From Marsupella aquatica (Eukaryota > Plantae > Marchantiophyta), in NCBI GenBank assembly GCA_973895155.1, contig OZ316891.1:8433875-8497874 (forward strand): a stretch of DNA of 64,000 nucleotides, read 5' to 3'. A program made the translations under genes and the position numbers. Below the pieces are notes generated by a model that searched no databases, was not told the DNA's origin, and was given only the letters and a program-made list of their open reading frames with translations. Shown here piece after piece: positions 1 to 50,248 of the stretch (its first letter is position 1; each line of letters begins with the position of its first letter).

Positions 1-90
1 TCTCCTGTAGAGAAACACAAGAAGATGCATGAGCCCGTATGGATGTAGTCACGCGAATGGTCGCGTCACATATTACAAAGAAAACATCCT

Positions 91-798
91 CTACACTCTG
101 GCCATTGATAAGTGACATCTGTTGAAGTGCTTGATAAGAACTTGATCCGCATGTCTCTGCACGTACAGATGCTCCCATATATCCTCGTTCAGATCCCAAT
201 CTCGATGTAGATTTCTAATCGACCAGATGGGATAATCGAACTTGTTAGCGAACGCAAGACAAAGCCCTGAATTTGATAGCTTTCGTAAATATGGAATGAG
301 GTCATCCCTCAAAAAGACATCATCCAACGATCCTTGAAACGACTTAGCGAACAATAATCCGCATACAGCTGTCTGGCATGTATGGGAAGGACAGGCATCA
401 ATCTGGATTATATTCTCTGGTCCATAATCTTGAAACATATCACGTAGTCTCTCGATAGATTTGAAGACAACAGTCTTATAATTTTTCTTCACATAACCAA
501 GATTCCAGCAATGATCCCGCGTGAACACATATATCAGCTGTGACAGGTCGGTGCTCGACAACACTTCTGAAAGTATCTGATAAACCAGTTTATCGTCAAG
601 AATAGACCAGACCATCACATCAAAATGATCATAAGAGAATTTTATAAGATCATGAAGAAGCGGCCTCGGAACGACACATAGAGATCCGATACGAATTCCG
701 GGTGCCGACTTGAGCTGAGGAGTATATTTTGAAACAGAGCACAGGAAGTTTTCCAGTCCTAAAACTAGAAGTTGACGCGATCTGCTCCACTTAGACAC
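91..798 (-). CDS. FCP1/NIF-like HAD phosphatase domain, probably inactive; terminal exon without its own ATG
   Basis: Motifs LLVLGLENFL..PRPLLHDLI..FDVMVWS..VFTRDHC..VFKSI..YGPENIIQIDACP; the DxDxT motif is lost. It is preceded by acceptor catttacag|GTG at 801-799. Confidence 0.7.
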   Translation of the reverse strand: MSKWSRSRQLLVLGLENFLCSVSKYTPQLKSAPGIRIGSLCVVPRPLLHDLIKFSYDHFDVMVWSILDDKLVYQILSEVLSSTDLSQLIYVFTRDHCWNLGYVKKNYKTVVFKSIERLRDMFQDYGPENIIQIDACPSHTCQTAVCGLLFAKSFQGSLDDVFLRDDLIPYLRKLSNSGLCLAFANKFDYPIWSIRNLHRDWDLNEDIWEHLYVQRHADQVLIKHFNRCHLSMARV

Positions 799-923
799 CT
801 GTAAATGAACAATTCGATTCTCATATTATGCAATTGCAAACAACCACGCGACCGGGCGCGTCACTCCCAAAAGTTCAATTTCAATCAATTTATAAATAAT
901 AATTGATAATAAACAATAAATGT

Positions 924-1829
924 TTACTTATTGGACTTATCCCGGGCTTCTATAGCACGGTCTTTTTCGGCAGATAAGTATTTCATAAATTCGTCAAACT
1001 TTTCTAAATGGTCTTTATTTCCCTGATTACGAATGATCACGTTTCTCCTCCAAAGATTTATCTTATCAATATAATCTTTCTCAAGATTTTCTTGAGAGAA
1101 CGTTGGAATCCCATATCCACTAAGGAGCTCGCGGAATGTCAACTTGTCAATTGACATGTCGCATAGATATGGATATAGTTTCTTTCTAAAAAATAGGTCA
1201 TCATCGAGCCCAGAATATGCATCGGGATACAGCGATGAATAGAAGTCATTAAGGCTCGTCTTATATGCAGCGTCATCGATAAGAATGACATTCTCGATGT
1301 TGTAATCTTTAATATCGGTGGCAATGTCCGAGAGATATTTGACAAATAAAGGGATGTCATTATTATTCTTCCCAATAAGTCGAGTTGATTCTTGTCCCCA
1401 TATAAATTTAATACGTTTCAAAACTTCGGGTCGAAGTATCAGCCTTACACAAGATAGAATATTTCGTTTGAACATGCACGACCAGATTGCAATGTCGTAT
1501 AGATCTGCCACCTTCTCAAGAAATTCCATTAAATCAGGCCTTGGATAGATAACCTTGTGCATCTGTCTCACACCCCTTGACCGAATGTGCATCCCAGGGC
1601 TGATCTTATCTGACCAGATAAGTACCCGATTCAGATCGAAAATTACAAGTCTCTTCTGAACCAGTGACTTCTTTGCCGATGGATTAGGCGCCATCTGTAC
1701 CTGTGATTTTTGTGCCGCAGGGTTTGGAGAACGTACTAGAACGGTCTGTTTGTTTCCCGCCTCTGGACGATCACTGGACTTCCGGACTGATGCCTTCGAT
1801 ACTCGATCAGGGGGTTTCAGGATAGGCTT
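924..1829 (-). CDS. FCP1/SCP-like (NIF) CTD-phosphatase domain exon
   Basis: KRLVIFDLNRVLI, YPRPDLMEFL, YDIAIWS, FIWGQE, FVKYL, ENVILIDDAAYK. Open reading frame from the acceptor at 1830. Confidence 0.85.
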   Translation of the reverse strand, partial: KPILKPPDRVSKASVRKSSDRPEAGNKQTVLVRSPNPAAQKSQVQMAPNPSAKKSLVQKRLVIFDLNRVLIWSDKISPGMHIRSRGVRQMHKVIYPRPDLMEFLEKVADLYDIAIWSCMFKRNILSCVRLILRPEVLKRIKFIWGQESTRLIGKNNNDIPLFVKYLSDIATDIKDYNIENVILIDDAAYKTSLNDFYSSLYPDAYSGLDDDLFFRKKLYPYLCDMSIDKLTFRELLSGYGIPTFSQENLEKDYIDKINLWRRNVIIRNQGNKDHLEKFDEFMKYLSAEKDRAIEARDKSNK

Positions 1830-1915
1830 CTGTAAAACATTAAGAAATGAAAATAAGTTTATAACGCGAACGGTCGCGTGACTACAAAGAGAGACACTGA
1901 AATGAAGTGTATTAC

Positions 1916-2704
1916 CTGTACAAGATGGTCGTTCAGTGCTGGAATTCCGCCGGAAATGTCAATCATAGCAGCACGGATCCCGGTAACTAGGTTACTTGCG
2001 GACGTCGGCTTGCGGAAGTCCATGTCAAATAACGACAAGACTATCTCCCTACGGAATTTCTCAATTTGATCCGCGGAAAAATTAATTCCGTTTCCTTGAC
2101 ACAAGCACTTGGCGTATCTCAAGATAAACACACCACAACTGTGGCCGTCACTCTGGTGAGGAATATCATTCCGATATATCCGTTCCCAACCTGAGAGATC
2201 CAAGTTGACACCAATTCTCCAGCCAATTTTGTCAGTGTAGTACTTCCCAACAATATCTAGCACCCCAGGATTTTGTCGATTATGAACTAGAGAATCTAGG
2301 TACTCTAGCCGTTTCTCCTTCGGATACAAGACTACCAATGACCAATGTTCTTTCACAGCATTGTGTACTGGAAAGACCAGTTTCTCGTATTCACTGATTT
2401 TTAGCGAAAACTCCTTTGTCCAAGCTGCTCTCTCCTCGTCGAAAATGGTAGGATCCATGGAGAGAAGCTCAAAATGGTGTGTTTGGAAGAATTTGACAAG
2501 GTCTGACTTTCCAACTCTATCGAGAATCAGTTCGAGAAAACTCAAATAAGCGTTAATTATATCATCGGTGAGCAACTCGCGCGGTCTCAGACACATCATA
2601 TGTTTCCTCTTGATTGAGTGTTGTAAGAACTTGGTCAATAGCTCTTCCATATCCTTAGAAGGATCAAGGCATTGATCTATTCGACTAGCCAAATTTTCAA
2701 AAAA
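1916..2704 (-). CDS. Ulp1/peptidase C48 SUMO-protease domain exon
   Basis: CLRPRELLTDDIINAY, VFPVH..EHWSLVV, YLDSL, PHQSDGHSCGVF: His-Asp-Cys triad and oxyanion Gln intact. Confidence 0.92.
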
Positions 2705-3716
2705 CTGCAAAAAACAGAGATTTCAGTACGCCTTCAAATAACGTACTGAGGTTGTAGCCTAAGGGTTGTAGCCTCAGAAAACAGAAACAATAACAGATCA
2801 ATAATGAGGTCTATAATAGAAACTTTAAGCTTATAGCTTGCGAATGACCTTTGGATTGGGTGGATCCGGCCTTTTTGCAGCTGATCTCTTGGGTGCCTCA
2901 ATCGCAACAACATCCTTCAGCCCTCCTCGAGACCGCAGTGATCGCTCCACCGGACCAGTTTGCGAAGGTTGGAGCGATGAGGCGGGAAGACCTTCAAATG
3001 GTTGTGGCATTTGATTCAAATATTCCACAATCTGGGAATCCGATTCCAAAATATCCGGTGCCACAATTTCTGCGCGAGTCACCTCTGCAATATATCGGGG
3101 TCGAGACCACGAACCCGGTCGCGTCAAGTTAGCTGTTAGTCTCTTAACGACTTGAGCCGAGTCTGGTGCCAAAAACGTTCCCAGGTCTTGCACTCGATTC
3201 TCAGAAAAGCGGACATTATTGATGATTGTCTCCATTCTGGATGCAGTGACAGTCTTCTCCTCGGTAATCAAAAGACCCTTCCAATATTGCAAAGCAAGGA
3301 CTGCCTGGACTCGAAGCTGCTCCGGTGAATATTTATTCCAATCATCCAAACAGACCGTACTTAAGGGTGGATCGTTAAATTCAAACTTCGGGCGAAGAAA
3401 ATAGTCTAATATTTTCTTCTTAACTGCAACTGAGGGTGAAGAAGGCTTCTTCAAATTCAGCCTTATTTTCGGTAGACGTTGTGCCTCAGGAATAAGCGAA
3501 AGATCCTTGGCCCTCTCGGCCTCCTTCCTCGCTGCCTCCAGTCTTGCGGCTTCTTCTCTCTCCAGTCTTGCGGAATCCACCTTTTCCGCCTCCAACTTCT
3601 CCGCCTCCACCCTCTCCGGTCTTGCGGTCTCGTCCGCCATCCTCTCGGCCAGCAGCCTCTCAGCCGCCTCACTCTCCGCCTTGGCCCTATTTTCCTCTGT
3701 CAATAAAAGGACTCTC

Positions 3717-4300
3717 GCAGCCTGGGCTTTCTCAGCCTGGGCTTTCTCAGCCTGGGCTTTCTCAGCCTGGGCTTTCTCCGCCTGGGCTTTCTCGGCCTCC
3801 GCTTTCTCAGCCTGGGCTTTCTCAGCTTGGGCTTTCTCAGCCTCCGCTTTCTCAGCCTGGGCTTTCTCGGCATCCGCTTTCTCCGCCTGGGCTTTCTCAG
3901 CCTGGGCTTTCTCAGCCTGGGCTTTCTCAGCCTGGGCTTTCTCCGCCTGGGCTTTCTCAGCCTCGGCTTTCTCCTTCTTCTTCGCGGCAGTTGCTTTTCT
4001 AGCTACTGCCTTTTTCTTCTTAACCTCCTTCTTTTGAAGCTGCTCTTGCCGGGCCGCCTCTTGTCGGGATGCCTCCTCCTGCCGGGCTGCCTCCTTCTTT
4101 TGAAGCTCCTCTTGCCGGGCCGCCTCCTGCCGGGCCGCTTCCTTCTTTTGAAGCTCCTCTTGCCGGGCCGCCTCCTGCCGGGCCTCCTCCAGCCTGGCCT
4201 CCTCCAGCCTGGCCTCCTCCTGCCGGGCCGCCTCGTGCCGGGCCTCCTCTTGCCGGGCCGCCTCCTCTCTGGCCTCCTCCTGCCGAGCCGCCTCCTCTTG
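3717..4300 (-). repeat. Coding tandem repeats (15-bp AEKAQ/AEKAE units; EEAARQ-type units) forming a charged helical spacer
   Basis: About 16 copies of gcctgggctttctca on +; translation in ORF 2831..4477. Confidence 0.9.
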
Positions 4301-5005
4301 GTCCACCTCATGTCGAGGCTCCTGTGTGGCCTCTTCATCAGAGTCCTCAGCGTCCTCGGAACCCTCAATCTCCTCATCCTCTTCATCAGCGTCCTCAGCG
4401 TCCTTCATCTCCTCTCCGTCACTCTCTTCATCTCCTCTATTGTCGGAATCTCCGACATCGTTCTGCGTATCGGTCATCCACTCTGGATCTTGGTCATTGA
4501 CATCCCCATCCGCGTCACCTTCCGCGTCACCTTCCCCCTCACCATCCGCATCACCATTGCTCCCTGCATCCTCAACATTGAAGCCGTAGTCGACTTGATC
4601 TGAATAAAATCAGATTATTTGATAAGAATGACTCACGCGTGAAAAGAAATGTTATGAATGTCCACGCGCATGTTCGCGTGACGCAATAAAAAGTAAGAGG
4701 TTTCAAAAGTAACTTACCTTGGATTGGCCCACTAGGGTACTCCGTTGGTCGAATGTACAATCGATCGAAATCTTCAGAGAGTGCATACTCTTGCAATAAT
4801 TGATTACAAATATTATCAGGGATATGTTGTTCGTGGAGGACATCCAAAACATCAGCCCTGAGAGCAGTTACGGATGGACGGTACTTCATTAATTTATCTA
4901 TACATTTTTCTATACTAGCCCGTACTGGGTCAATCAATGACAGCGTTGTATCAATTGTCGCTGTGGTGTGTTGCAAGAAACAAGACAACTCCCTATGCGT
5001 TGCCA

Positions 5006-5718
5006 CAGGGCAGTAATATTTTACATTGGATCCAGCATCCTGTAAAAAAAGCCGAAATTAGTTCACAATATTAATTGAGAATATAATAATCTAAATAATC
5101 TTACAATCGAAACCCCAAAATATAAATCAAAAAACTTACCATTAAGCACTGGATCAAGTTCGTTCCCTCACCGAAGCATATAGCCCATTCCCCACATTGG
5201 ACGAATTGACTAACAATACTTTCAAAGAATGGAAGTATCTTTTCTGGGGAAGGTGTCGTGAACTCGCCGCTCTCTTCAAAATTGGCTATCTTCTCAATCT
5301 GATATTTGGAGACCAATTGGAACTCGAGGGCTTGTGGATCGCCCATTGTGCTGAAGGCCAAGCTGTGAAAAGCGTAGGTTACAATAAGCTTCTTCTCCTT
5401 CGGCCTCTTCTGAATATAATGGCTATCGACAGCAACGTAGTGTGTGTACTTCCCTAATTCCCGTTTGATTAAGTAAGACTCAACGGGAGAGGCTACAATA
5501 ATAACCACATGGTGTGGTTTTGCCCCTATCTCGCTAGTAGCACGAAATAACCCCTCATAGAATGAGCAATTTGGCGGACGCAAATCTCCCATTGATGAAG
5601 GATCAAAATAAATCAAGCTCGCAAGGTTCTTGTCTTCACGTATGATACAGTCTGCAAACCCAGCATTTTGTATATCCTGCAGGGATCGCAATTTTAGCCT
5701 CTCACCGACCGGCCGCAC
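5006..5718 (-). pseudogene. Degenerate beta-class N4C/N6A DNA methyltransferase-like domain
   Basis: ADCI..ASLIYFDPSS resembles GDC..VDLIYxDPPY (motif IV). Downstream PSPEKILPFFESIVSQFVQCGEWAICFGEGTN..DAGSN resembles PTQKP..LI...S..GD.VLD.F.GSGT...GR (motif I). The IV-then-I order is that of the beta class. Confidence 0.5.
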
Positions 5719-6542
5719 TAGTTGGTTTCCTTGACTATCAACTGATTTCTATATTCCTTCCACCAACCTGTAGAATATAGGGTCGATCTCCTTCAACAAA
5801 TTATCATTACTAATATTTACATTTAAGCACTTCTTCAGATAACCACTCAACACATCTCTCAACTGCTTCAGCACCATCTTGTCGAGCTTAAAGCGATCAA
5901 TCATTCCTTTGACCCGCAATTTCCGCGCTGAATCTGTCAGACTTTTCAGCTCCGTCCGGGTGGATGTTTCCCCGTTGAGTTTACTCAATAATAAAATCTC
6001 AAACTCAACTTTCGTCTTCTTCTTTCTACAGAATTGCTCCAAACTCATGCTGGTCGTTGACAACACTGGAGCCTCAGAGGACTTCCTCGCCTTCCCAGAT
6101 TTCACTTGATGCTTCGGTTTTTGAGTATAGACAGTCTTCCGCTCAACATATATTCCGCTGCCTTTCGAAGAACCGAGTCTGAGCACCCTTGACAAGAACG
6201 GAACGTCTTCTTCAGAAGATGATAAGCACACGGATTATCCGCAATTTTGACGGCGTCCCTCTGTAAAATTCCGTTGTAAATTACAAGCTCTCCTGTCCTT
6301 GATAGTTCGTAGACCTCCATCCACTTCTTGAATGTTTCGTCCTCCATTGTAAAGAGAAACGGAGCCAATTCTCCAAATTTCATCATTTCGTTCTTCCCCA
6401 TTTGAGCCCATGGGCAGACAAAACTCATAGCTCTCATAAATACCTGAAAAACAATGGAAACATGACAATTCTAAGCTTGACGCGACCGTTCGTGTGACAA
6501 AAGTTTATACGATAATGTGATCGAAGAGGGTTATTTATATAC

Positions 6543-7050
6543 CTTCCAATTTGGATGACGATAATGTGATCCAGGCCGCCCAAATGAGTTCCAGATATTA
6601 CGACACTGTCGTACAATGGTGAGAAACTGTCATTCTTCCATTGATGTTTGATGACAATGGTTCAGAGCTTTCGATAATCCCATCAAATGAACATTATTGT
6701 CGTTGTTGAGCGTTGCCCAAAACATTACAGCTTCTACAGTACCGCAAGCGTCTCGTACAACTTGGCTGACTTTGTCATCCTCTCTCAGCAATTTGTACGC
6801 CATTATTGTGTGCTGGCCTCCGAGTATCCAGAAATGATTGGTCATAATGTCCTCCTCCTTTGGTGATGAATCATAGGGCGTCCCATTGTAGTCGGGATCT
6901 CTGTCGGCCTCCGACTGAACCCACTTCACAGGGACTAAAAAGCAGCATCGCTTCTCGAACTTTATAGCCGAATGAGAGAGGAGTGAATTCTTTAGCCTAT
7001 CTGTGTAATCCTAATTCCACTCTCAGCACTTGATGTGGTCCGGTGCAAGA
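6543..7050 (-). pseudogene. ParB/Sulfiredoxin-like N-terminal domain
   Basis: Read through two stops: IKC*EWN*DYTDRLKNSL...FLVPV...FWILGGQHTIMAYKLL, matching the R..(v..L..Si)...Y.IixGxH/R.xA pattern. Confidence 0.55.
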
Positions 7051-7856
7051 TGACAACGTGATGTCTCAACAAAAAATGACTTGCTGTTAAATATATTCAC
7101 AGCACTATATTCTTTGAGGAAAGAATCGAACAGAGCCCCGACATTCGCTGAGGTAATTACTTTCGGAAGATTCTCCGCCGAGTATACTTCAACCTTGCTC
7201 ACTGGCGGGGCCTTTCCCAAGCGAAATCCCTGGTTGAAAGGAACTCTCTGGAACTCAAGTACGTCAATAATGTATTGACAAATCAAATCTCCCGTTGATG
7301 CCTCTGGATCGGAAGGATATCCCACACTAGTAACCTTTTCCAAGGCGTGCCTTGCACCTAGAAGATCATCGATTCTGGGCTGATTGAAGGTTACATATTG
7401 CGTTCGATCCAAACAAATGCTTATTTTGTCTTCCTGCTGGTCGTCGCTAACTAGCAGAACCAATTCCTCTGTACACTCTTTAACTTTCATGTTCTTCTCA
7501 AAGAAACACCCGAGAATTTTTGATCTCTCCAAAATTGTAGCTTTATCATTTCTTGCCACCACAAGACGGACAGCCCCATTGCGAACGACTATTCCAAAAT
7601 CGGATATCTTAGTCGATTCAAAGAGATGGATACTCTTTGTCTCCGTTGTTCTCTCTCTGATTGACTTTCCTCGATATGCAAGTATGGATGTCTCCGCGGG
7701 AGTCATTTTTGTCTTGGTTTTCTTTCGAGAAGCAGCTTTAGACAAGTCTCTTTTCCGCTTTGAGGTTCCGGTAGGATCCATTCTGAAACAGACAAATATT
7801 GAAAGTTAAATGTTTATTATAAAATACTAACACGTGCATGGTCACGTTGTGCCGAA

Positions 7857-8387
7857 TTACATTTTAGGAATGTTTATCCTGACCCAATCTTCTCGCTCAT
7901 CTTCATCTAACCAAAACCAAAGGTTCCTAAACTTGTCAAGTTCAGATCCTTCAAATCCACCCAGAATGTCCAGCGGCGGGAGAGTTGTGATGGATTCTGT
8001 AAATCTGAATGCTACACTCCGTGAAGTCAAATGCCTTCGAAGCGATTCATATCCTGGTCTATCAGTGAAGTCGTAAGCTACCAAGGTGACCGTCGCCCAA
8101 GTACTACTATAAGTAACTATGTGGCACCACTTCTTACTAACTGTTCGAATGGCGATCAAGTCCATGACCCGATTTTTAATCGCAGTATCCGACAAATTCC
8201 CAAGACAGTGGAAAAACTCTTTGACTAATGGCCAAATATATTTCTCGACAATATCGTCCGGAAGACCGGGTATCAGGTCTTCAGCTTGACTCCATATCAT
8301 GTTTCGGTTCATAACCTTTGCACGTGCAATGCGCTCCATCATCATTTGACGATGAGATTTTCGATTCATGTCAAAGGACTGCAGCAT
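7857..8387 (-). CDS. F-box-like protein, paralog 3
   Basis: LIPGLPDDIVEKYIWP...IRTVSKKWCHIV; resembles the plant F-box motif. Confidence 0.7.
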   Translation of the reverse strand: MLQSFDMNRKSHRQMMMERIARAKVMNRNMIWSQAEDLIPGLPDDIVEKYIWPLVKEFFHCLGNLSDTAIKNRVMDLIAIRTVSKKWCHIVTYSSTWATVTLVAYDFTDRPGYESLRRHLTSRSVAFRFTESITTLPPLDILGGFEGSELDKFRNLWFWLDEDEREDWVRINIPKM

Positions 8388-8421
8388 AATATGGAAAAGA
8401 TTAAGAACAAGAACTTATCCA

Positions 8422-8988
8422 TTAAGAACTAGGACCACCGAGATTCTGAGAAAATCTACCAAACCTTTCGATTAGGACATCTCGTTCTTCCTCATCTAAA
8501 TTGTTATATTTGTTTGTAAACAATGCGATTTCGTCAAAAGTAGTAGTCCCAAGAACATATATTTCTGGAAGCATAGAAATATCCTATCGAATAACTCGAC
8601 AGACTGAGTCAAACTCCAACTCGTCAATTTCGGGTATGTTGTAAAGAGCATCATTTGCGACATCGACAATCCGGTTTGCTTGTTTGAGGATAGCCCATAA
8701 CCTTGTATTTGTAACTAAAAAGTTCCACTTCTTGCTACAAGCTCCAAGCCGAATAAGGTCTCGGACCCTATCGATAACCAAATCGTTATCGAGGTGTCGA
8801 TATCCACGCAATCTTTCAATTGAAATAAAGTGTTTGTAGAGTATTGGCCAAATGTTTGAAATGACCAAAACATCTGGTATTCCTCCAATGAGACTAGAGG
8901 AGGTTTCATCCAGCGTATCCCATATTGTTTTCTGTTGCTTTTCATGAGATGAAAGGAAATCTCGAGCCTCATTCAAAAGTTGGCTCAT
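8422..8988 (-). pseudogene. F-box-like protein, paralog 2 (premature TAG at 8584)
   Basis: LIGGIPDVLVISNIWP...LGACSKKWNFLV. Read-through gives DISMLPEIYVLG...NLDEEERD, homologous to the paralog C-termini. Confidence 0.7.
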
Positions 8989-9053
8989 CCTGCTTTTATC
9001 ATATCACAAAACATTGTTAGAAGACATACGACGCGCTTGGTCACGTAAGTTAA

Positions 9054-9605
9054 CTAGAATTCCTTAAAAGCGTAGATGTCACCCTCAAGGTATCCAACTT
9101 TGTGGCATCTGACTATAAATTTCCATTTTTCAAGAGGGTGAAGAGCATCGTAAGTCTTCGCGAAGAGTTCCCTAAGATCTCTGGACATTGATCCCATGAA
9201 TTTAATTCTTGGGTATTTCTGGAAGAAACTTTGAATTGTCGATGAGAGAGACTCATTTCCGATCGGTTTAGTAGGATTTCCTGGGAAAGCCAAATCTAAT
9301 AAACTCAACTTGATTACACCCAGAAGATAGGTATTCCCAACAAGGTGGCGCCATCTGCGACACACCGAAGATAGTCCTACAAACTCATCCAATTCCTTTA
9401 TTGAGAAATTTCCTGCATTAGCCGAGGAATTAAAAGTCTCCTTGATCCGAGGCCATATCAATTCCACGACAATGAAATCTGGAAGTCCAGGTAGTAGTGT
9501 TTCAACAAATACAGAATATCCCACCAGTAGACCATCTTGGCTTCTGTCCAAAACGTCAAATATTGGGCATAGATATCTGAAGCTCTCCAGACCAGGTTCG
9601 CCCAT
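9054..9605 (-). CDS. F-box-like protein, paralog 1
   Basis: LLPGLPDFIVVELIWP...LSSVCRRWRHLV. Confidence 0.72.
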   Translation of the reverse strand: MGEPGLESFRYLCPIFDVLDRSQDGLLVGYSVFVETLLPGLPDFIVVELIWPRIKETFNSSANAGNFSIKELDEFVGLSSVCRRWRHLVGNTYLLGVIKLSLLDLAFPGNPTKPIGNESLSSTIQSFFQKYPRIKFMGSMSRDLRELFAKTYDALHPLEKWKFIVRCHKVGYLEGDIYAFKEF

Positions 9606-9739
9606 GACTCTTTTCAGCCAAATGATATATCCCAGAGATTATTTTCACGCGACTGGTCGCGTCTACAAATCATAATGCATAAACAATTCTTTGAGAGACT
9701 GATTTTTTCGGGTGACAACGTGAAATCATAAATGTTGCT

Positions 9740-10362
9740 TCGTCCTCTAACAGAACCAGTCAATGAGAGAGCAACCTCAGACGCGACTGGTCGCATCAAC
9801 TGAACCTAAACAACTATATCCACTGAACCTTCTGTGGAGATTTGGATATGGTACGCGCTCAGTAAATCTATCTAGTTTCCTTCTCACACGCGACTGGTCG
9901 CGTCAACTGGTCCTAAAAGGAACCTTACCTCCTCTAACAGAGCCAGTCAATGAGAGATCTACGTCAGACGCGACTAGTCACGTCAACTGATCCTAAAAGG
10001 AACCTTACCTCCTCTAACAGAACCAGTCAATGAGAGAGCAACCTCAGACGCGACTGGTCGCGTCAACTGAACCTAAACAACTATATCCACTGAACCTTCC
10101 TTGTGGAGATTTGGATATGGTACTCGCTCAGTAAATCTATCCAGTTTCCTTCTCACACGTGACTGGTCGCGTCAACTGGTCCTAAAAGGAACCTTACCTC
10201 CTCTAACAGAGCGAGTCAATGAGAGATCTACGTCAGATGCGATTGGTCGCGTCAACTGAACCTAAACAACTATATCCACTGAACCTTCTATGGAGATTTG
10301 GATATGGTACGCGCTCAGTAAATCTATCCAGTTTCCTTCTCACACGCGACTGGTCGCGTCAA
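9740..10362. repeat. Composite tandem array (80-bp and 107-109-bp units), one palindrome per unit
   Basis: Palindromes at 9781, 9888, 9968, 10048, 10157, 10237 and 10344, with near-identical flanks. Confidence 0.92.
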
Positions 10363-12869: not shown

Positions 12870-13855
12870 TTGTATGGCGTACGTGTATAGTTGTCTATAC
12901 GTTTTGCTATTGTTTATTGTAGTCGACGGCCTAGCAAAATGAAACGTAATCGAGGTCCATTTTTCAGATCTTCCTGATCTCAACTTGTTAGTACGATGAC
13001 CTGTTTTTTGGTTACACATGCAGTTCGTCACGCGCATAGTCACGTGAACCAATTTATCTCGTGTCTTTTGATATTGTTTATTGTAGTCGACAGCCTAGCG
13101 AATTGGCCAGAAATCTATTTTTAAACCAATGTCTTCGTTTCATCACGCGCACGGTCGCGTTAATGTTTTAGAGGTCAGCGAAAGTTCTGCACTCTTAGAC
13201 GTAATCACCCTTTATTTCAGAGATCTTCCTGATCTCAACTTGTTAGTAGGATGACCTGTTTTTTGGTTACACATGTAGTTCGTCACGCGCACAGTCGCGT
13301 GAACCAATTTATCTCGTGTCTTTTGATAATGTTTATTGTAGTCGAAAGCCTAGAAAATTGGCCAGAAATCTATTTTGAAACCGAGTTCTGATTCACGCGA
13401 TCGGTCGCGTTAATGTTTTAGAGGTCAGCAAAAGCTCTGCACTCTTAGACGTAATCGCCCTTTATTTCTCAGATCTTTCTGATCTCAACTTGTTAGTAGG
13501 ATGACCTATTTTTTGGGTTACACATGTAGTTCATCACGCGCACAGTCGCGTGAACCAATTTATCTTGATATTGTTTATTGTAGTCGACTGCCCAGCGAAT
13601 TGGCCAGAAATATATTTTAAAACCGAGGTCTTCGTTTCATCACGCGCCCGGTTGCATTAATGTTTTAGAGGTCAGCAAAAGCTCTGCACTCTTAGACATA
13701 ATCGCCCTTTATTTCTCAGATCTGCTTGATCTCAACTTGTTAGTAGGATGACCTGTTTTTGGTTACACATGTAGTTCATCACGCGCACAGTCGCGTGAAC
13801 CAATTTATCTTAGGTCTTTTTGATATTGTTTATTGTAGTCGACAGCCTAGCGAAT
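12870..13855. repeat. ~250-bp tandem repeat, about 4 copies, two palindromes per unit
   Basis: Recurrent gatctcaacttgttagtaggatgacctg and ttgtttattgtagtcga; palindromes at 13030, 13145, 13285, 13395, 13536, 13642 and 13781. Confidence 0.92.
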
Positions 13856-14059: not shown

Positions 14060-14602
14060 TCAGTCATTCCAAGATGAAGGCATCCACTCATCGGTGTCTG
14101 GTGTGGATTCCCTTGAATCCAGAAATTCTTCCTTTGCCCAAGTCCTAACGTCCATAGATTTTCTCGGCTTGCTCTTTCTGTAATACAAATCAGAATCTTT
14201 GTTCATCTCTAATTGCCTTTTCTTCGGTGCGTCCACTTTCTTGGCCTCCTTCTTGACTGTCTTAGTGTCTGCTGCTGCTTCCCCCGAAATGGATTCGATG
14301 CATGCTCTGGCCTTCAACTTCTCCCCCCTTGAAACGGATTCCATGAGGGCTTTGCCCTTTAACTTCTCCCCTGATGCCATCTTTGTAGTCATCTCTGTCG
14401 GATTGGTCTCCATCTGATCTTCCATCGACAAATGTGGCGAACAATATCGTCTCTCACAAAACATTTGACCCGATTTAGTCACCGTAAACATTATATTACA
14501 TCGCTGACACATTCTGTAAGGAGTACCACAAATTTGATACGTCGAACCTTCTGAATCGTCCGTCGAAACATCCTCATTCTTTGAGCTCAGCGGAGTAGTC
14601 AT
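14060..14602 (-). CDS. Small cargo protein with a C4 zinc-finger-like motif and charged tail
   Basis: Intact 180-aa ATG ORF; CQRCNIMF....QMFCERRYC. Confidence 0.5.
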   Translation of the reverse strand: MTTPLSSKNEDVSTDDSEGSTYQICGTPYRMCQRCNIMFTVTKSGQMFCERRYCSPHLSMEDQMETNPTEMTTKMASGEKLKGKALMESVSRGEKLKARACIESISGEAAADTKTVKKEAKKVDAPKKRQLEMNKDSDLYYRKSKPRKSMDVRTWAKEEFLDSRESTPDTDEWMPSSWND

Positions 14603-15690: not shown

Positions 15691-15774
15691 ACAGGACAGT
15701 GCAGTGAAATTGACGGACGTGACAGGACTATACGCTTACAGTGATATTCTCTGATGTGCAGGATCATAATTATT

Positions 15775-18700
15775 ATGGTGACATCGACAGTCTGGATCAG
15801 GGAAGGCGGACAAGTAATTATAGGCATACGTGAGAAACAGGTTGGAAAAGGTCGCGTGATAAGTCTTGATCCTTCCAGGGTTTGTCACAATGTTCCTCTT
15901 GGGGCGGACAGAGTTCTTCTTCTATTGGAGGAAGTTTTTGACGAGACCATTCTATGCGAAGATGGCAAACTTTTGAAGGACATGATTGGGGGTTACCTTG
16001 TATGGGAAAGGAATCAGCTTTTTTGAGCTCCCATGGAATCGGAGGATGTGTTTGGCACTGTTGGTGATGATCAAGATCCAGTCAATCAAAATTATGATGG
16101 GAACAACCATAATGAGAGTCGGTCTGGTGTGGAAGTAGTTTTACCAAAGGCCTTGTGGATGGGCATGCCTGTAAAGGTGGTGGATGAGAACAAGTTGATA
16201 TTTGCAGTGGCAACTATACATGTTCTAGATCCTATAGTCAAGCTTGGGGATGTCACCCTTGGGAATACACATGTGAGAATTCTGATCAACGATTTTGTCG
16301 AGGGAGCTACCATAGATCATCTGAAGCATAGAGATTGCTTAAAAGCTTGGTCGATGGACCAACTCATTGCCAAGGATGGCAACTTGTTGTCTTTCCACAA
16401 CATCAGGCAAGTTCTGGGAGGGAACACATCTCCAACAAGTGGCAAGCGGTCCTACGTCCATAAAAGTAGGAAAAGAAAGAGTCCATCTTCCCAGACATCT
16501 AGAAGAGACACATCTTTGGCACGTCAAGATGTGTTGTTGATAAACACTAAGGACTGTTGTAGTGAACATTGTTGCCAATATTTGGACCGCAACTTGGTTA
16601 TGGCAATTAGGCAAAAGTGGTGGTCAAAATCTTTTGCGGAGCGCAAGGAGGAGGAAATCAAGGCTATTAAAAATACAATACACTTGGGTACTGGAGAAAG
16701 GATTCTAGCAGTGGAGGGCAAAGTATTGTGCTTGGAGGCATGGAGAATCATTCATTCAAGAGGAAAGACTCAATTTTATGCCTTGAAGAAGACTGTGATG
16801 GCTGGAATGAACATAGGTACCCATGGTAATGCTGGAAAAAGGCGTATGTCCGAGAAAGTATCTCAAGCGTTCATGTCAATGAAAGAGATTATTGAGGAGG
16901 CAGCTGATCATCATCCAGCCAAGTTGAGAACCATGGCAGATAATACAAGGATGGTTTTGAGGGAATTGCCAACAAATCTTACTTGGGAGAATATTAGAAA
17001 CAGGGTTAATGTTGTCAACCACGAGGCTGGTCTTCCTCCAATTTCCCAACCCACCTTGAGTCATCTACATCAGACGTATTTCAGGGAGTTCTCACGTCAC
17101 AAAAAGGGCAACAACTTTTCAAAGTGTACAACTTGTAGTGAGTTGCTTCAACGGAAAGCAAACCTTACAGGAGCTAAGGAAGAGTTAGAGGGCCTAAGGC
17201 GTGACGAGGAGGAACATCACCAAGACCACACACAACAAAGAATGTGCTATCATACCTGGAGATATGAGTCCATCCATCGTCCAAAGGAAGTGTTATGCCT
17301 TATTCATGATAAGATGGATCATTCAAAGACAGCTCTCCCAAGAATGCCCTTCAATCCTAAGCATGTGGATGGTGCCCAAAAGTTCTCAATTACTGTCACT
17401 GGTATCCTTACTCATGGTCATGGTCCCAAGGCCATAGCCCAATATCATGTTGGAGTGTGGCCAGGTGATGTCAACATCACTATTGGGTCAATTGATTCAA
17501 TACTAAGGATGTTGGAAAACCCAATTCCAATGATCAAATCACTTGTGGAGGGGCCAGACTCGACAAGTCTTTTTAAAGACCTCCTTTTTGGGAGAGCAGA
17601 TATCTTGGAGGCAAGTGTCCTTAGAGCATTTGAGGATGACATTGCCTACATCTCAAGCCTAGGTACTTTACTCACAATCCTTTAATTTATTATTATTTAA
17701 TAATATAAGCTCACACACACTGACACTCTACTTTGTGTAGTTGTTGCTCCTCCTAGCCAAGGTTTCATTAATAGGGTTTAAACCCTAAACCCTAAATTGG
17801 GGTTTAGGGTCTGACTAGGGTTTTGTTTAAAAGCATTCTGAGATTGTTACATTGTGATGCAGCACCTGAGGCACCAAAGTTCAGGCCCCTTCCACGAGTA
17901 TTGAAGCTACAACTGGATAATTGTGCCTTAGACAACAAGAATAGATATATGATGGCTTATTTGTCATTGTTGACGGCAAGGGAGGTGTTTGAAGAGGTTC
18001 ATCTTGGTTTTATGGTGGTTGGGCATACTCATGAGGACGTTGACAGTATGTTCGGGCATTTTTCAGAGTCTATGATGCATAACCCCACATACTCATTGCC
18101 TGAGTTAATGTCCTTGTTCATGAGAGCAAGGACACCCAATGCAGTCCCACATTTTCTACAGGAGGTCCCAGATTTCAAAAACTACTTAGCTCCATTCATG
18201 TTGAAGGGCCCTGAGGCATTGGTGGGGCATTTAAAACCCAGGCTGTTTAGGTTCTATGTTCGTCATGATAGTATGCCATGCTTCCAATACAAAATGAAGT
18301 CAACTGATCAGGGATGGTTACCCAAGGAAGGTATTGAAATGTGGTCATGGAAAGATGACAAAAGTCCTCACATCCCAATTGGGGTGCCCAAACGGCTACC
18401 AATGATGGAGTTGAAAATGCTTCCTGAAGTGCTGACAGGGTTGAAGAAGCATGTGTCATTCTTTGAGTTTATTCTAAAGCGAACAAAAGAGGAAGAACCA
18501 AAGCGACGTTGGACAACTCTCATCAATTATTGGAATGACATTGTAGATACTCTACAGGGTGAGCAGGTGCAATATGAACCTGAAGGTGCACACAACTTGG
18601 AATACGGGTTTTGGCCTTTATCAATATGGAGAGAGCACGTTCCACCAGAATATCGAAATGTGGCATGTGAGTTGGAGGCAACAGTGGATTATGTGGGACC

Positions 18701-19151
18701 AGCAAAAGATAAACCTCCTGAGAGTTTTAACCCTAGGGTTGATGTTGTGAAGGGCTATTATGTGTTGGTACGGCCGGACGACTCAGACCTGGATGTTTAT
18801 CCCGTCCATATGGGGTTAGTTGTTACAGATGTGGTAGAAGGACCAGTGAATGAACAAAACCTTCTTACTCATGTATGTGGCGTTGAGTGGTTTAGACCAT
18901 TTATGGCAAAGAAGCAACGTGGTCAATCAGACTGGCAGCCAAGAGAGCGGTGGGCAGATTCTTGGGATAAGAAATGGGAACGTGATCCATCTCCAATATA
19001 CAAGGAAGCTGAGACAATAGATGTTTCCTCTGCCTTGTGGTGTTTCAAAGCACGCAAAGGACCAGTGATAGGGCTGGTAGGAATTCCAAAGAATGTTGTT
19101 GTCAAGGCAAGAGACTATCTCTTGACATGCATAGCAAGTGACAAATCCTAG
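15775..19151 (+). pseudogene. DDD-type transposase (Sola-like/DUF7869-like), spliced, with one premature stop
   Basis: Motifs CCSEHCC, FSKCTTC, LIHDKMD, LKLQLDNCALDNKNRY, FMVVGHTHEDVDSMFG. Exons 15775-17662, (17741-17761) and 17863-19151 are phase compatible. The TGA at 16024 is in frame with ATG 16033. Confidence 0.75.
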
Positions 19152-19246
19152 ACAGTAATGAAGCATGTAGTTTAGCATACAGTTTAAAAGGCAACTCAAA
19201 ATAGTAGTAGCCAGAGAACTCAAGTTTAGACAAGTCTTATCGTCTA

Positions 19247-19805
19247 AGTTAGTTAGTTGGTTAGTTTATTTAAGATATAATATTAGTTAGTGGGGCCTTA
19301 GTTTGGTGATATTAAGGCATGATATTATTGACATTCAACATTGTAATATACAACAATCCTATTAATAAATAATAATTATAGTTACACCCTCAAGTGAACT
19401 CAACTTTCAATGATTTCTGATTTTATATGGTTCCATGCCTGATTGAGTCAAAGCAATAGAAACTAACTAATTAAAGGGTGATACTATAATTGTAGGTCAC
19501 GCACCCTGGTGCGTGTCAATCTTTTTTGTATTCAACCCTATAGTAATTAAATAGACAAGTTAGTTAGTTGGTTAGTTTATTTAAGATATAATATTAGTTA
19601 GTGGGCCCTTAGTTTGGTGATATTAAGGCATGATATTATTGACATTCAAATAAATGTCCAGTAGACATTGTAATATACAACAATCCTATTAATTGTTGTA
19701 AAGAAACTAATTAATTAAAGGGTGGTACTTACTATGATTGTAGGTCACGCACCCTGGTGCGTGTCAATCTTTTTTGTATTCAACCCTATAATAATTAAAT
19801 AGACA
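19247..19805. repeat. AT-rich direct duplication downstream of the transposase
   Basis: aagttagttagttggttagtttatttaagatat at ~19246 and ~19556; tgtaggtcacgcaccctggtgcgtgtcaatc at 19491 and ~19739. Confidence 0.88.
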
Positions 19806-29500: not shown

Positions 29501-32500
29501 CCGCATGCAAGGCAATGGTTCCATTTACCCCTTTCTTCACAGAAGCCCTATATCAAAATCTACGGAAAGTTATCCCATCAGCAGAAGAGAGTATCCACTA
29601 CTGTGCTTTCCCTGAGGTTCAGGGGGAGGTAAATCTTCTACTTCGACCTCTTTGTTGTTGGATGCGGAATGTTATGATATCCACCATCCAGTTGTTTCCT
29701 CGTATTAAGAAATGCCCTGCACCCTTGTGGAAACTTTTAGAAGCAGGAGTGGTGGGTACTGATTGAATGCTTGTGGATGACGTGTAACTCAGACCGACGA
29801 GCGTATTGAGCAAAGTGTAGCACGTATGATGACAGTCATTGACTTGGCACGAAATATCCGTGAGAGGCGCAATAAACCTCTGAAGACTCCACTTTTGTAA
29901 GGATGTGCAATTCATGTCTTGTAAATTGCTCTGATTTACGCGGACGAGTAGACCAAGGTACTAATTTAGCGTCATGGTGTCGCAGAGAAATGGTCGTGGT
30001 CCATCCTGACAAAGACTTCCTTGATGACATTTCCGGCAAGTTAGGAGAGGTGGGTTGCCTACTCTTGTCTTTAGCAAGGGAAGGCCTTCAAATTGTTTAT
30101 TGTTCTTTCTCTCGCACTTATCATGCCTTTGGAACAGTAGAATAAATGTGATCTTCGACCTGGAGATCAGGATCTCTTTGAGACTTCTGGAGGAAGAGGT
30201 TAATAAATCTTCGACAGGAGAACTAGAAGCTTTGTTCGTGCAAGACGTTTGCTGAGGCAACTATCTGTTATGACTACTTTGCAGTATGTCCAAGAGGAGC
30301 TCAACGTCAGGGGCATTGTAGCTTGCAATGATCCTCTGAAGTATGCATGCCTGCGCGCGGAGCCTGATTTCAGGTATAGGATGTGTTTCATTGACAGGCA
30401 TTGAGGTCTTTCCCAAAGTGTTACTTTTTGTTGACCTATCAAGGGAAAGTAGAAAAGATGCGAAGTTGATCATGAGTGAAGCACCTTTTAGAGTTTTTGG
30501 AAACCTCATCCCTATAGATATGAATTACTGTTCCTGCTTGCGTGACTGATGTAGCTGATGCTGTGCCTTGTGAAGCATCGTCTTCACAAGCTTCGTCGTC
30601 TCATTGAAATTATTTATAGTTGTGCGATTCTGGTCAAATCGCTATTTTGGACACACCCTGTTGCTACTCATGACTTGCTAACTTAGCTCTAGCTATATTT
30701 TCTGGTGGTACTGTAGCAATATACAAGCCAGGTCTAAACTACAAGATCCTTCTGCTGAGTTTGAAACTGTATTGGTTTGACTGAAGACTTGTTTTGTTGG
30801 TGATAAACAGTGTTCTGGGGAAGAGATTAGGGAGAGCGATGGGCCTTGTAACAAAGGAGGTGAAAAATCTGGGGCAAAAGGAGATTTTGGCATTTCAGAA
30901 ATCTGGAACCATTACCATCGCTGGCCATGTGTTAACAGCGGGAGACATTAAGGTAATTTAGAGACATGCTGGCTGTGTGCATTTGTTTCATTTAACCTAA
31001 AGGTCCCAAAATTATGCATACCGGTAAATTCAAATTGACCTGGTTTTTAATTGTGATGGGTTTACTTCACTGGACCAGGTTGTTCGAGAATTTAAAGCAC
31101 CTGAAGGATTCAACAACGACGAAATTGATGCTGGTGGTGATGGTAAGTCCGGAACGACTGAGATGGAATGGCTTGTCTTGTCTCTGGACATTCTTCACGG
31201 GGCACACTTGACAATTGCATTTTGCTAGTTGCGTTAAAATTTTATGAAGTCAAGCTGAATTAGAATATATTAGTACCCAATGCAATTGCTCTTGTTGTAT
31301 AAGAATTGCAATGATTTGGTCCTTGCATTACAGGTGATGTTCTTGTTGTCTTGGATCTGCGACCTGATGACAGTCTGCAAGAAGCAGGTGCTGCACGTGA
31401 GGTGCGTACTGCATTGAGTTATCTTTACCTCATTGCGTGCAAGTAGGAGAACCTTAGCGTGTGGGCTTTATTAGCGTATGAGCTTAAACTGAATCTTATT
31501 TGAGAGATGGAGTTGGAAGTCTGGGTTAATTTGAGGACTGTAGAGAGATCAAAACGGAAATTCTCAATTTACCGATCCCCTCGATTTCTGCTGCCAGATT
31601 GTGAATAGGGTGCAGAAGCTTCGTAAGAGGTCTGGGCTGGAGCCAACAGACTCGGTAGAGGTATATTATGAGCTCGCTGGAAACAAGGGTGATAACATCA
31701 CTTTGGAGAAGATTTTCAGATCTCAGGTAAAACATTAAAGAAGGAGCTCCACAAGAAGAGTTCATCAGGGTTTTTAGGTTTTCGTTACAGAAATTTTCGT
31801 GAGGACCTGTACATCATAGTTGTTGTGTCTGTTCCTTTGCTGGATTTGGTTTGGTACTGGGCATGGTTTGAATTGACGAAGTATTTGTTTACACATCACT
31901 ATACAGGCCTCATACATTAAGGAGTGCGTTGGGTCACATGTTTTACCAAATGAGAAGCTTCCTTCACATGCGGTAAGCAAAACAGTGCACCAACACTCTG
32001 GTGACATAGTCCGGACTGGTCGCACTTGTTTAACCGTACTATGTGCATGATACATGTCGACAATAAATTTTTTAGATAGCTGACCGAAGACATTTTGGAG
32101 TGGGAAACTTATCGTATAGTTTGCGAGAGCAGCTTTAAGCTCGCTTTCGCTTTTGGGATGGAAGTATTTATCTTATGTTTTCTTTGTTATGTTCGCCAGG
32201 TGGTAATCGCATTTGAGCAGTTCAGTGGAGTTGCTGGAGGCAGTTTTAAGATTACTCTCGCCAGACCTGCGGTGTCATTTGCATCGGACTTGCTAGTAGA
32301 GCTGTGCTCAGGTACCAAATCTCGCTGGGCATGTTTCTTGTTAAAGTCTCTAGTTGCTATCAGAAAAACCTCTACATTCCCTGGGTACCTATGTACCTAT
32401 GACAAGTGGAAAAGGGCCAACCTCTGTATAAAATTTGACTGAGATCAATGTGATGTCACAGGTAACAAAGAGCATGCAGAGAATATATCTGTGGTTCTCT

Positions 32501-37883: not shown

Positions 37884-39935
37884 GGAAATCATTGACTGCT
37901 TCTCACTATTCGTTAGTGGGTCTGCTTGCCAATCAGATTGGCCCCAGCCAGGCCAAATTCTCCTTGAAACAGCTCTCTCTCGCTCTCTATCAACGCATGA
38001 GTCCTCAATTGGAGACAGAGCTGACACCCAGCTGACCTGAATCCATTGCTAGAACTTAGATTGGGCGAATTGCCCTGTTCCCTCTACGAAACCCTTCCTT
38101 CTACTCGGCCTGGCCGCACGGTGATTTCACAGATGGACGTATTGAGAGCAAGCGGAATCCATGCCATTCATCAGCAACGCTGTCCTCCAATTCCTACCCC
38201 CAAAGTTTCGAATATCATTCTGTCATGAAGCAGATCGTGAGGCATTAAATCAGATTTCCTCTCCAACGAGTGCCCAAAAAACTGGCTCTGTCCATCAAAT
38301 ACATGGTGTGGAGGTATTGTATCTCGCTAGCCATCAGGAGTCAATACCTCCACACCATGTATTAGATAGCTAGCGAGATAGCTAGCAAAACGGGGTGTCC
38401 CAAAAATGTATGTTATCAACCAGGTTGTTGTTAGCAAGACAGTTGGATATAGGAAAATTAGAGGTCATGTGAGTAAAATTTTTGCTCGTGCAGGAAAACT
38501 TTTACTGTTTCCTCACAGGCTACACTGACCCCCTAGATCTAGGTGAGCCTGCAAAATGGACACAGTTACTGACCCTACTTGTTTCTGAAAAGATTTTAAC
38601 AACAAAGTTTGACTTTTAATATCTCCCTTGAGACCCAAGAGAATTGGCTTTTCTTGAGCTAATTAGAAGCTGCTTGAAAATATCTTTCCAACCAGTCTGA
38701 GATCTCTAGTTTTCATAAAGAATGGAGAGAGTATGTTGTGAATCTCTAGGGATCACTTCATCACTGAGTGTCCAATTATAGTTATGAATTCCTACAGATA
38801 ACTCCATCACTCGCTGTCCACACTATGAGTTGTTGAAAGTTATCCACACTTTGAGTTGTTTAGAAGCTAATTTGAGATTCAGGATCTACCCCTATATACA
38901 ATTGAATATGATATTTTGGGGATTGCTAGAAACTAACTACTCGGAAAGATCTTTGCAATGAGCCTAAATAATCAGATGCTATTGAGAATTGAAAGACCTA
39001 CTAATTTTCAGAAATGACTGATGTTTTCTTGCCACATTTTACTCACCTAATATGTACTATATGAGCAGAAACAAGGGTTTCACTGCAGTCCATCCGGGTT
39101 GCAAAAAGTATATCCAAGCATTATGGCAACAATGGAGGTCCATCCTGGTTTCAATTTCTCAGAACTTGAACTGATCCCTATGTTGAATTTAACTTGGAGC
39201 CTTGAAACCATCCAAAGCTTGCATTACCATACTGTTTTTTTTAGATCTAATTTCACTCATTCATGTAATAATATGTATATTATAACAAGCTCTAACAAGG
39301 GTTTTACTGTCTAGCCAGGTAGCAAAACATCTATCCAAACATTTTGGCAACCTCATGGTGCAAGATGTATCATATCAGCAGAACTGAGGGTTTCACTACC
39401 ATATAGCTGGGTTGCAAAAGTCTATCCATGGATTGTGGTAAATGTGTTGCTTCATTTTCCTTCAAACTTTCATGTAAGAATTCCAAAAGATGATTGTCTT
39501 GTTTTCTTGCCACATTTCACTCATCATTGTGATAAGTTTTATATGAGAAGAAACAAGAGTTTTGCTGCAGTCCATCAAGGTTTCAAAAGTTTATCCAAGC
39601 ACTAGCAACGTCACCCTACTGCATGAGCAGAAAGAAACAAGGGTTTCACTGCCGTCCATGTGGGTTGCATAAAGTGTATCCAGGCATTTTGTCAAACCTG
39701 GGTGGCAAACGTGAGGCTTCAATGTCCTCCAAACTCAAACTATAACTACACTAGTGTTTGATTTAACTTGGACGTTGAAAATCATCCAAAGATGACAATA
39801 TCTTTCTTTTTTGGGTGTCTCATTTCACTCATCCATGTAATATATGAGCAGAAGCAAGGGTTTCACTGCAGTCCATCCAGGTTGCAAAAAACTCTTCCAA
39901 GCATTTTGGTGACCCCATGGTGTAATATGTAATTA

Positions 39936-49619: not shown

Positions 49620-49965
49620 AAACTTCATCTAGTTTCATACAAACTCATCAGCACTTCATCCAGCTCCACAAAATCTCATTAGCACTTCATCTAGTTCCAT
49701 AAAATCTCATCAGCACTTCATCTAGCTCCAAAAAATCTCATCAGCAACGTAGAAATTTCACATCATCTAGTTACATAAAATCATCAGCAGCACAGAAGTT
49801 TCATACAGTTCCATAAATCTCATCAGCAATAGAGACACTTCATCTAGTTCCATAGACATCTCATCAGCAACACAGAAGTTTCATATAGTTCCATAAAATC
49901 TCATCAGCAACAGACAGAGACATCTAGTTCCATAAAATCTCATCAGGAACACAGAAGTTTCATAT
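49620..49965. repeat. Degenerate minisatellite
   Basis: catctagttccataaaatctcatcagca-like unit, about 9 times. Confidence 0.85.
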
Positions 49966-50248
49966 GCTGTTCAGATAGTTTCATTGACTGGTATAGGCAC
50001 TGGAATCTGCAAGTTCGTGCAAGTAATGCGAAGGCCAATAAACTGACTACTCTGCTGACAACAACTTAACTGAGAGTTAGAAGATGACCACCATGCTCAG
50101 AATGATGGTCCTGACTCTGGACGAGCATCCATTTGCACATTAGCACAATTCATTTCCATTGCAAGCTGAAACCATTCGCCACAATTGGTAAGTGGAAGCA
50201 TACTTTGCTCCAATAGAAACTGAAACGCTGCACAGTTTCAGAGGATTC

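Follow-up and report, generated by a model that had tools for sequence, protein, structure and literature searches.

What kind of gene lies hidden in a run of broken open reading frames (ORFs) on the minus strand of a liverwort contig? The run occupies positions 924 to 7781 of a 64,000-nucleotide (nt) stretch of Marsupella aquatica (Marchantiophyta; GenBank assembly GCA_973895155.1, contig OZ316891.1, positions 8,433,875 to 8,497,874 of the forward strand), which we call the window and whose numbering we use throughout. A preliminary description, made from the letters alone, had joined nine ORFs into a polyprotein of about 2,100 residues carrying ParB-like, methyltransferase (MTase)-like, SUMO protease and C-terminal domain (CTD)-phosphatase domains. 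Our reading, on which we regard the evidence as evenly poised, is that the run is what decay has left of one copy of an accessory gene with several exons, that this gene belongs to what is probably a large, repeated DNA transposon of plants, and that its product would bind the element's own palindrome and counter silencing; the palindrome and the retention of CpG around it, which the preliminary description lacked together with the transposon context, supply the likely target and purpose of the gene product. As the preliminary description had expected, annotation by ORF misses the gene, and its relatives were found only as unnamed, exon-sized fragments.

The first question is whether the ORFs belong together at all. 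All five of the GT...AG introns that had been said to join them could be confirmed in coordinates, frame and splice rank: they are 86-144 nt long, have a GC content of 23-37% and keep the frame. Read on the minus strand, exon 1 (6543..7781) is followed by intron 1 (6444..6542, 99 nt), exon 2 (5140..6443), intron 2 (5040..5139, 100 nt), exon 3 (4718..5039, 107 codons), intron 3 (4600..4717, 118 nt), exon 4 (2849..4599), intron 4 (2705..2848, 144 nt), exon 5 (1916..2704), intron 5 (1830..1915, 86 nt) and exon 6 (924..1829). The spliced model contains stops at 7025, 7013, 6632 and 5751 and one change of frame between 6237 and 6104, after which it is open down to the stop at 926-924, giving 526 + 1,577 or ~2,100 codons. 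When GT..AG pairs were scored blind to frame, using general plant splice frequencies and zones of ~400 nt centered on the proposed junctions, introns 1-5 each ranked first, among 167, 135, 190, 209 and 233 pairs, respectively; with zones so centered, the chance of five in-frame, top-ranked introns is ~1/240. We rejected a chance assembly of ORFs. Two of the introns have features of their own: an in-frame acceptor at 4564 scores nearly as well as that of intron 3, and across intron 4 GC drops and T goes up.

Homologues bear out the first two junctions. Nine of the 32 protein matches to exon 1 end at the intron 1 donor in a W..G.P..[WY]xV pattern followed by a tail of 2-45 residues, four more do so by eye, and in two relatives (P0026 and P0027) exon-1 sequence continues into exon-2 sequence. 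Intron 1 is thus common to relatives that are just 19-60% identical, which implies that the gene has long been resident in intron-bearing genomes. At intron 2, the similarity of the relative P0041 ends at exactly the proposed donor. For introns 3-5 the support comes from splice signals alone, on which we think there is a good likelihood that they are spliced as modeled, and for this reason a link of the ParB half to the protease and NIF domains on one chain is likely rather than shown.

Could one transcription unit yield separate proteins instead? Alternative splicing and polyadenylation might produce three F-box proteins, Ulp1, two NIF proteins (NIF1 and NIF2) and a ParB-linker protein that stops at 2831, all still used together by the element, with the full chain of 2,100 residues minor or absent. 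Upstream of exon 1 on the minus strand there are three paralogous F-box-like ORFs (7857..9638; F-box E values 0.001-0.01, below the Pfam cut-off; 25-34% identical to one another), and strong splice acceptors stand directly ahead of three ATGs, at 8988 in F-box ORF 2, at 8369 in F-box ORF 3 and at 7781 in exon 1. The same scoring at the F-box 1-2, F-box 2-3 and NIF1-NIF2 boundaries gave best pairs that were out of frame in all three cases. Among the five donors that of intron 4 scores lowest (2.8 bits), and if this intron were left unspliced an in-frame TAA (2833-2831) five codons past the donor would close the frame. Set against this, introns 3, 4 and 5 all rank first and in frame, compared with none of the three ORF-to-ORF pairs; the 144 nt of intron 4 would scarcely fit the end of one protein plus a new start; and the Ulp1 exon has no Met until 19 codons in. 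We consider separate proteins unlikely, and a single chain from the ParB half to the enzymes is the reading we carry forward. As an observation in its own right, the acceptors before these ATGs (8990, 8379 and 7783, minus strand) are placed as they would be in one long transcription unit that uses alternative 3' splice sites.

Both ends of the gene model are uncertain. Upstream, scoring of the boundary between F-box ORF 3 and exon 1 gave an in-frame winner (7860-7783, rank 1 of 202), an intron that could join an F-box ORF to the model and that contains a degenerate palindrome at 7832. Downstream, the final TAA of the model overlaps a donor-like AA/GTAAAC ahead of a second NIF-like ORF (5-927, minus strand, taken with its flanks). 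This ORF (91..798, minus strand; PF03031 E 1e-9) is 23% identical to NIF1 and has lost the catalytic motif, which reads GLENF; a strong acceptor stands before it at 799 and a further one after it at 5, and palindrome sites lie at 846 and 51. The best donor-acceptor pair from NIF1 into it is out of frame in this copy, and the acceptor at 5 would mean a further exon beyond the window.

What, then, of the four stops and the frameshift? The preliminary description had treated them as read through; the breaks are present, and the read-through is what the comparisons argue against. At the exon-1 stop columns 7025, 7013 and 6632 a residue is present in 12, 12 and 17 relatives, respectively, and P0041, 50% identical over 323 columns of exon 2, has a single open frame across both the frameshift and the stop at 5751, over nearly all of that exon. 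Relatives are thus open at all five breaks. Of seven sequencing runs considered, none of them recorded as RNA, six contain this DNA in whole or in part; we aligned four of the six to positions 4400-9700 of the window, a comparison in which read depth does not equal copy number and of which 40 of 804 differences were listed. At 7013 all depth in 4/4 runs shows another letter, at 7025 all depth in the 3/3 covering runs does so, and at 6105 one extra base occurs in 4/4 runs (438/472, 807/923, 5,430/10,171 and 13/13 depth units); other copies thus differ at the three breaks that were compared. Among the indels listed (12 of 21), eight fall in the gene, five of them in introns, two mutually compensating in exon 4 and one at the frameshift site; the three indels in intron 2 all come from one diverged contig. 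Runs X1-X3 each contain 439-1,302 contigs, of which 61-163 are less than 90% alike, and because there are hundreds of distinct contigs, many of them so diverged, they indicate a repeated family of this element. We read the four stops and the frameshift as lesions of this copy that are not translated through, and rejected programmed read-through or recoding because the breaks are specific to this copy. F-box ORF 2 also has an internal stop (8584-8586, minus strand) beyond which similarity to its paralogues resumes, probably another lesion.

Which proteins does the chain resemble? For its N-terminal part we relied on a fold model of a relative, P0001, rather than of the window protein, built from 31 aligned sequences (pLDDT 77) and showing two domains; two of the exon-1 matches, P0012 and P0031, which look unrelated and repeat-driven, were kept out of the alignments. 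Projected onto exon 1, a PH-like domain (~7670-7230) precedes a ParB/Sulfiredoxin (Srx)-fold domain (~7090-6640). For residues ~250-398 of P0001 the top eight VIA rows all belong to the ParB/Srx family, the best being PadC (Z 7.8, root-mean-square deviation 3.0, 99 aligned), KorB (Z 7.7) and SerK (Z 7.0), with the next unrelated row at Z 4.7, and the top ten Foldseek rows are all ParB/Srx/Noc (E 0.01-0.04). Residues 51-204 resemble PH-type folds, weakly yet uniformly (Z 4-4.7). The ParB-like N-terminal domain proposed earlier is in this way supported as a predicted ParB/Sulfiredoxin fold, and ahead of it a PH-like fold is predicted. An arginine ahead of the ParB-like core is invariant in 12/12 relatives.

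The middle of the chain is less readily placed. Exon 2 holds conserved domains without family assignment, and exons 2-3 gave no Pfam, NCBIfam or PDB match. Part of exon 2, from ~5600 on the minus strand, had been called MTase-like, and this is the one proposed domain we could not sustain. A profile built from 13 beta-class N6/N4 DNA methyltransferases scored -2.4 against the window segment, a score equaled or beaten by 85/200 shuffles; profile-profile comparison (hhalign) gave a probability of 0.9%; and the candidate catalytic motifs DPSS and FGEG read DCSV and FSEG in P0041, the sole relative there. The order of the motifs and their spacing of 142 residues do resemble true enzymes (149-200 in the 6/13 in which both patterns are present), and exon 2 may hold a dead, diverged MTase fold. 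A single-sequence fold of segment 5140-5748 reached a pLDDT of only 38, and the ESM Atlas held no usable match for it; the best ESM Atlas match of the relative P0002 (0.78) was to a fungal DUF3723 cluster, below the threshold for a lead. Profiles A1 and A6 found nothing below E 0.2 among solved structures, and NCBIfam searches with 11 proteins gave just one weak row, which we judged to be chance. In exon 4 an acidic stretch is followed by 15-nt tandem repeats (families D1, D3 and D5), which encode a long helix rich in Glu, Ala, Lys and Arg, and then by a region without family assignment; a long charged linker, as first described, fits these repeats.

The C-terminal enzymes are the most easily recognized part. 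Exon 5 encodes a Ulp1/SENP-type (C48) protease domain that exceeds the Pfam cut-off (PF02902, E 9e-18) and matches SENP2 and SENP1 at E 2e-17 to 5e-17 with its His/Asp/Cys triad aligned and intact, which upholds the SUMO protease of the preliminary description, and cleavage of SUMO by this domain is predicted. Exon 6 encodes a NIF/HAD phosphatase-like domain (PF03031, E 6.7e-11, 42.6 bits against a cut-off of 21.8). The FCP1/SCP catalytic motif is DxDx(T/V), and here it deviates to DLNRV; the sole match to a solved structure is UBLCP1, at E 0.016. A NIF/HAD domain is supported by these figures, and it is the narrower name of CTD phosphatase that is doubtful.

What might such a protein act upon? 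Scanning for ACGCG-N6-CGCGT with at most one mismatch, we found 22 sites between 51 and 15647 and none in the remaining 48 kb of the window; 200 shuffles gave a mean of 0.115 sites and a maximum of two. This palindrome is a spaced 16-bp inverted repeat with four CpGs; spacers of 3-5, 7 and 10 gave no site, 8 gave four and 9 gave one. All 22 sites are non-coding, though 9,055 of the 16,000 bases of the left end of the window, which we call the arm, code for protein. Two tandem arrays (9647-10360 and 13030-13797) hold 14 of the 22, a pair lies at 15371 and 15632, and three of the five introns of the gene carry a site: intron 1 (at 6480), intron 3 (at 4664) and intron 5 (at 1864). In runs X1, X2 and X5 a 10-base insertion at 4635, in intron 3, creates a second full palindrome, and other copies are nearer the palindrome consensus at 4635 and 7835. 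In one of 40 relatives examined (P0010) the palindrome appears as translated read-through ahead of exon 1.

The arm is set apart by its CpG content as well. For the six exons the observed/expected CpG ratio comes to 0.75-1.03, against 0.29-0.33 for the transposase ORFs described below and 0.41 for a copia element elsewhere in the window, with a step at 16,000 from 0.87 to 0.29. This retention of CpG suggests that the arm escapes CG methylation. A block at 48-50 kb is strongly CpG-depleted (0.14).

Does the arm belong to a transposon? Its right end adjoins, and in part contains, a transposase-like gene with a DUF7869 domain (15745..19151, plus strand; PF25273 E 1.2e-36), whose CxxC, HxxxH and acidic (D..D..GHTHExxD) motifs we take to be a transposase core, and which may resemble Sola. 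By Pfam it matched no MULE family and none of the CMC Pfam families given in PMC5751038. Its frame begins within the CpG-rich arm (15745-16023, same frame, with one stop at 16024), and beyond it lies a duplicated AT-rich block (19200..19800) in which the motif scan found two variant palindromes, ACGCA-N6-TGCGT, at 19499 and 19747; this block is a possible subterminal region. Since the frame of the transposase opens within the CpG-rich part and the two variants lie beyond the transposase, we favor one element and think it probable that arm and transposase form one mobile unit. The start of the transposase frame (15745-16500) comprises two similar beta-rich segments split by the stop at 16024, the first with a weak eIF-1a match only, and the gap between the two transposase ORFs holds telomere-like CCCTAAA/TTTAGGG repeats (17770-17810).

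Alternatively, the arm might be a repeated host gene cluster, or the remnant of another mobile or virus-like element, lying beside an older, methylated transposon, with its CpG content reflecting its origin. The sharp fall of the ratio at 16,000 and the lack of identified termini are what such a history would leave. The position of the transposase start, the variant palindromes on its far side and the presence of intron 1 in relatives so distant all speak against it, as does the lack of viral relatives: among the ORFs scanned no viral hallmark family was found, and a scan of viral contigs gave no relative (0/83). A separate arm we regard as very improbable, and an endogenous virus was rejected, there being no hallmark in the ORFs scanned. 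A metagenome scan for related loci returned 2/39 candidates, both lacking tblastx similarity to the element: L001, which was rejected as a bacterial antisense chance match, and L002, a short degraded piece.

If the gene is an accessory gene of this element, how might its product work? We propose that it is the element's self-recognition factor. Because the palindrome is two-fold, the protein would bind it as a dimer, through the conserved exon-2 region that follows the ParB fold, a candidate for contact with DNA because ParB has a helix-turn-helix after this fold; whether the gene product binds the palindrome, probably in this manner, we judge an even call. Reach would come from the long charged helix; the Ulp1 domain, its triad intact, would take SUMO off proteins of silencing or repair; and the NIF domain, with its deviant motif, would be a weak enzyme or a decoy, with the outcome that the arm stays free of CG methylation. 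For this second part, in which SUMO is removed from silencing factors and the arm thereby kept unmethylated, our confidence falls somewhat short of even. More speculatively, a clamp dimer of bacterial ParB type, taken over by a land-plant transposon lineage, might load on the palindromes in the element's introns and spacers, spread along the arm in the manner of ParB from parS and deliver a deSUMOylase and a phosphatase decoy while F-box proteins from the same transcript remove host factors, leaving 16 kb unmethylated by a route independent of VANC and linked to red-algal and fungal ParB-like accessory genes; we regard this fuller scheme as possible and rather doubtful.

Is the gene product, however, the reader of the palindrome? 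The transposase or another protein of the element could read it, or the palindrome could serve in end pairing or promoter control, with the polyprotein acting elsewhere, for example in removing SUMO from the complex that carries out transposition. Activation of an element by its own transposase or TnpA is described in 10.64898/2026.08.24.746577, and Ulp1 is described as a recurrent cargo of transposons in PMC13317346. In the window, two palindromes flank the transposase start, with the two variants at its far end, and a Cys-rich ORF (14063-14599, minus strand; 179 codons, unmatched in Pfam, containing a CxxC...C...C cluster and ending in a lysine-rich tail) lies directly upstream of the array at 13 kb. 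Opposed to these points, the palindromes cluster in and around the accessory genes, including three of five introns, and none lies in the transposase gene; moreover, proteins of the ParB fold typically serve inverted repeats, as the accounts in 10.1101/2025.02.11.637652 and PMC7333895 have it. Another reader thus appears improbable, and we retain the gene product as the candidate.

Several observations weigh against our proposal of a ParB-type reader that counters silencing. The 22 palindromes are not independent, 14 of them being within two arrays; one palindrome with two mismatches lies inside exon 4 (3109); and the transposase or the Cys-rich ORF could be the reader instead. The fold prediction has no Foldseek row at E 0.001, its VIA Z scores are below 8, and the model was built on the relative P0001. 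The arginine patch of ParB, GERRxRA (PMC7333895), reads GGQHT, invariant in 7/7 sequences of alignment A5, and this replacement makes CTP hydrolysis by the domain doubtful; no DNA-binding domain was identified in the gene product. No homologue spans junctions 3, 4 or 5, and searches among longer proteins, one with exon 1 and one with Ulp1, came back empty, although these are weak tests. Retention of CpG extends over the exons as well as the regions with the motif, which differs from VANC with its local effect on CG, and the depletion of CpG in the transposase gene could mean a separate element. Finally, the window showed neither a terminal repeat nor a target duplication, the element's left end being outside it.

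Elsewhere in the window, host-type genes (an Ile/Leu/Met/Val tRNA synthetase, a HAD hydrolase, TAF10 and a rhodanese) and a broken copia retrotransposon occupy 23406-54080 and 58833-62383. Unrelated tandem arrays occur at 39926-40507 (35 nt), 49622-49976 (31-40 nt) and 63478-63719 (61 nt), and a weak HicB-like antitoxin match at 31777-32172 (minus strand; E 0.015, below the cut-off) is probably due to chance.

Why would such an element matter? How anti-silencing proteins encoded by transposons lift silencing is an open problem, and this element combines a specific site with a candidate to read it, whose fold is predicted, and with enzymes that can be named, predicted to form a single chain. 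If our reading is true, sequence-specific self-recognition by transposons extends past the VANDALs of eudicots, and ParB-type domains play a part in plant chromatin. Each ingredient has precedent; in the searchable literature we met no match for the combination of PH-like, ParB, Ulp1 and NIF domains with F-box neighbors and a CpG palindrome carried in introns. Open literature yielded no ParB with Ulp1 in a moss or fern transposon and no paper naming DUF7869, subscription journals and Repbase entries lying outside the search.

How does the gene compare with systems already described? The core domain of MAIN-like proteins is named DUF1985, and no MAIN-like Pfam match was found in any piece of our gene, whose N-terminal model matches ParB/Srx and PH folds instead. 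VANC proteins recognize short motifs in non-coding tandem repeats and hypomethylate their own elements (PMC5735166, PMC10398659); the motifs are non-palindromic 8-9-mers, in the VANDAL MULEs of Arabidopsis. VANC is described as derived from MAIN-like proteins and specific to dicots (PMC13547354), and some VANC genes carry Ulp1 (KIU) in a role stated to be unknown (PMC13317346). Our gene shares with VANC and KIU the character of an accessory gene with internal repeats, an element-specific short motif in non-coding tandem arrays and, in its CpG retention, a signature consistent with low methylation; it shares with KIU a Ulp1 domain, whose attachment to the N-terminal half we infer from splice signals. 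Unlike VANC, it goes with a spaced palindrome containing four CpGs and with a transposase that is not a MULE by Pfam, and we rejected membership of VANC on both the domain and the transposase tests.

The resemblance to bacterial ParB/parS, KorB, PadC and Noc, and to Sulfiredoxin, lies in the predicted N-terminal fold, the invariant arginine and a 16-bp inverted-repeat site. Unlike bacterial ParB, the gene has GGQHT for GERRxRA, no identified helix-turn-helix and no ParA, contains eukaryotic introns and is predicted to be fused to enzymes of chromatin type. The protease agrees with Ulp1/SENP (C48) enzymes in passing the Pfam cut-off with its triad intact, and the NIF domain agrees with FCP1/SCP/UBLCP1 in passing it as well, unlike them in its motifs DLNRV and, in the second ORF, GLENF; what sets both apart from their known counterparts is their predicted place in a single chain, C-terminal to a ParB-like domain.

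Nearer still are the giant transposons of the Plavaka group (EnSpm/CACTA) in the red alga Bostrychia. According to 10.1101/2025.02.11.637652, these elements measure 17-19 kb and carry the accessory genes PAG2, with an N6-adenine methylase and a SET domain, and PAG3, which has an N-terminal ParB-like domain, adjoins tandem inverted-repeat arrays and encodes a putative 2-oxoglutarate (2OG) oxygenase, a domain that InterPro misses; self-binding by PAG3 is proposed and is still a proposal there. The ORFs scanned in our window gave no PF01555 or SET match that would correspond to PAG2, the arm extending past the window's left edge. In our element, whose host is a land plant, the ParB-like domain has other partners than in PAG3 and PAG2 (PH-like, Ulp1 and NIF domains and the F-box ORFs), the transposase-like gene is of the DUF7869 type, and the palindromes, unlike those of Plavaka, are spread through introns across 16 kb. 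Like PAG3, which we compared by its description rather than by its sequence, our gene sets an N-terminal ParB-like domain, here preceded by a PH-like domain, beside inverted-repeat arrays, and on that published description PAG3 is the closest architecture, with other enzyme partners.

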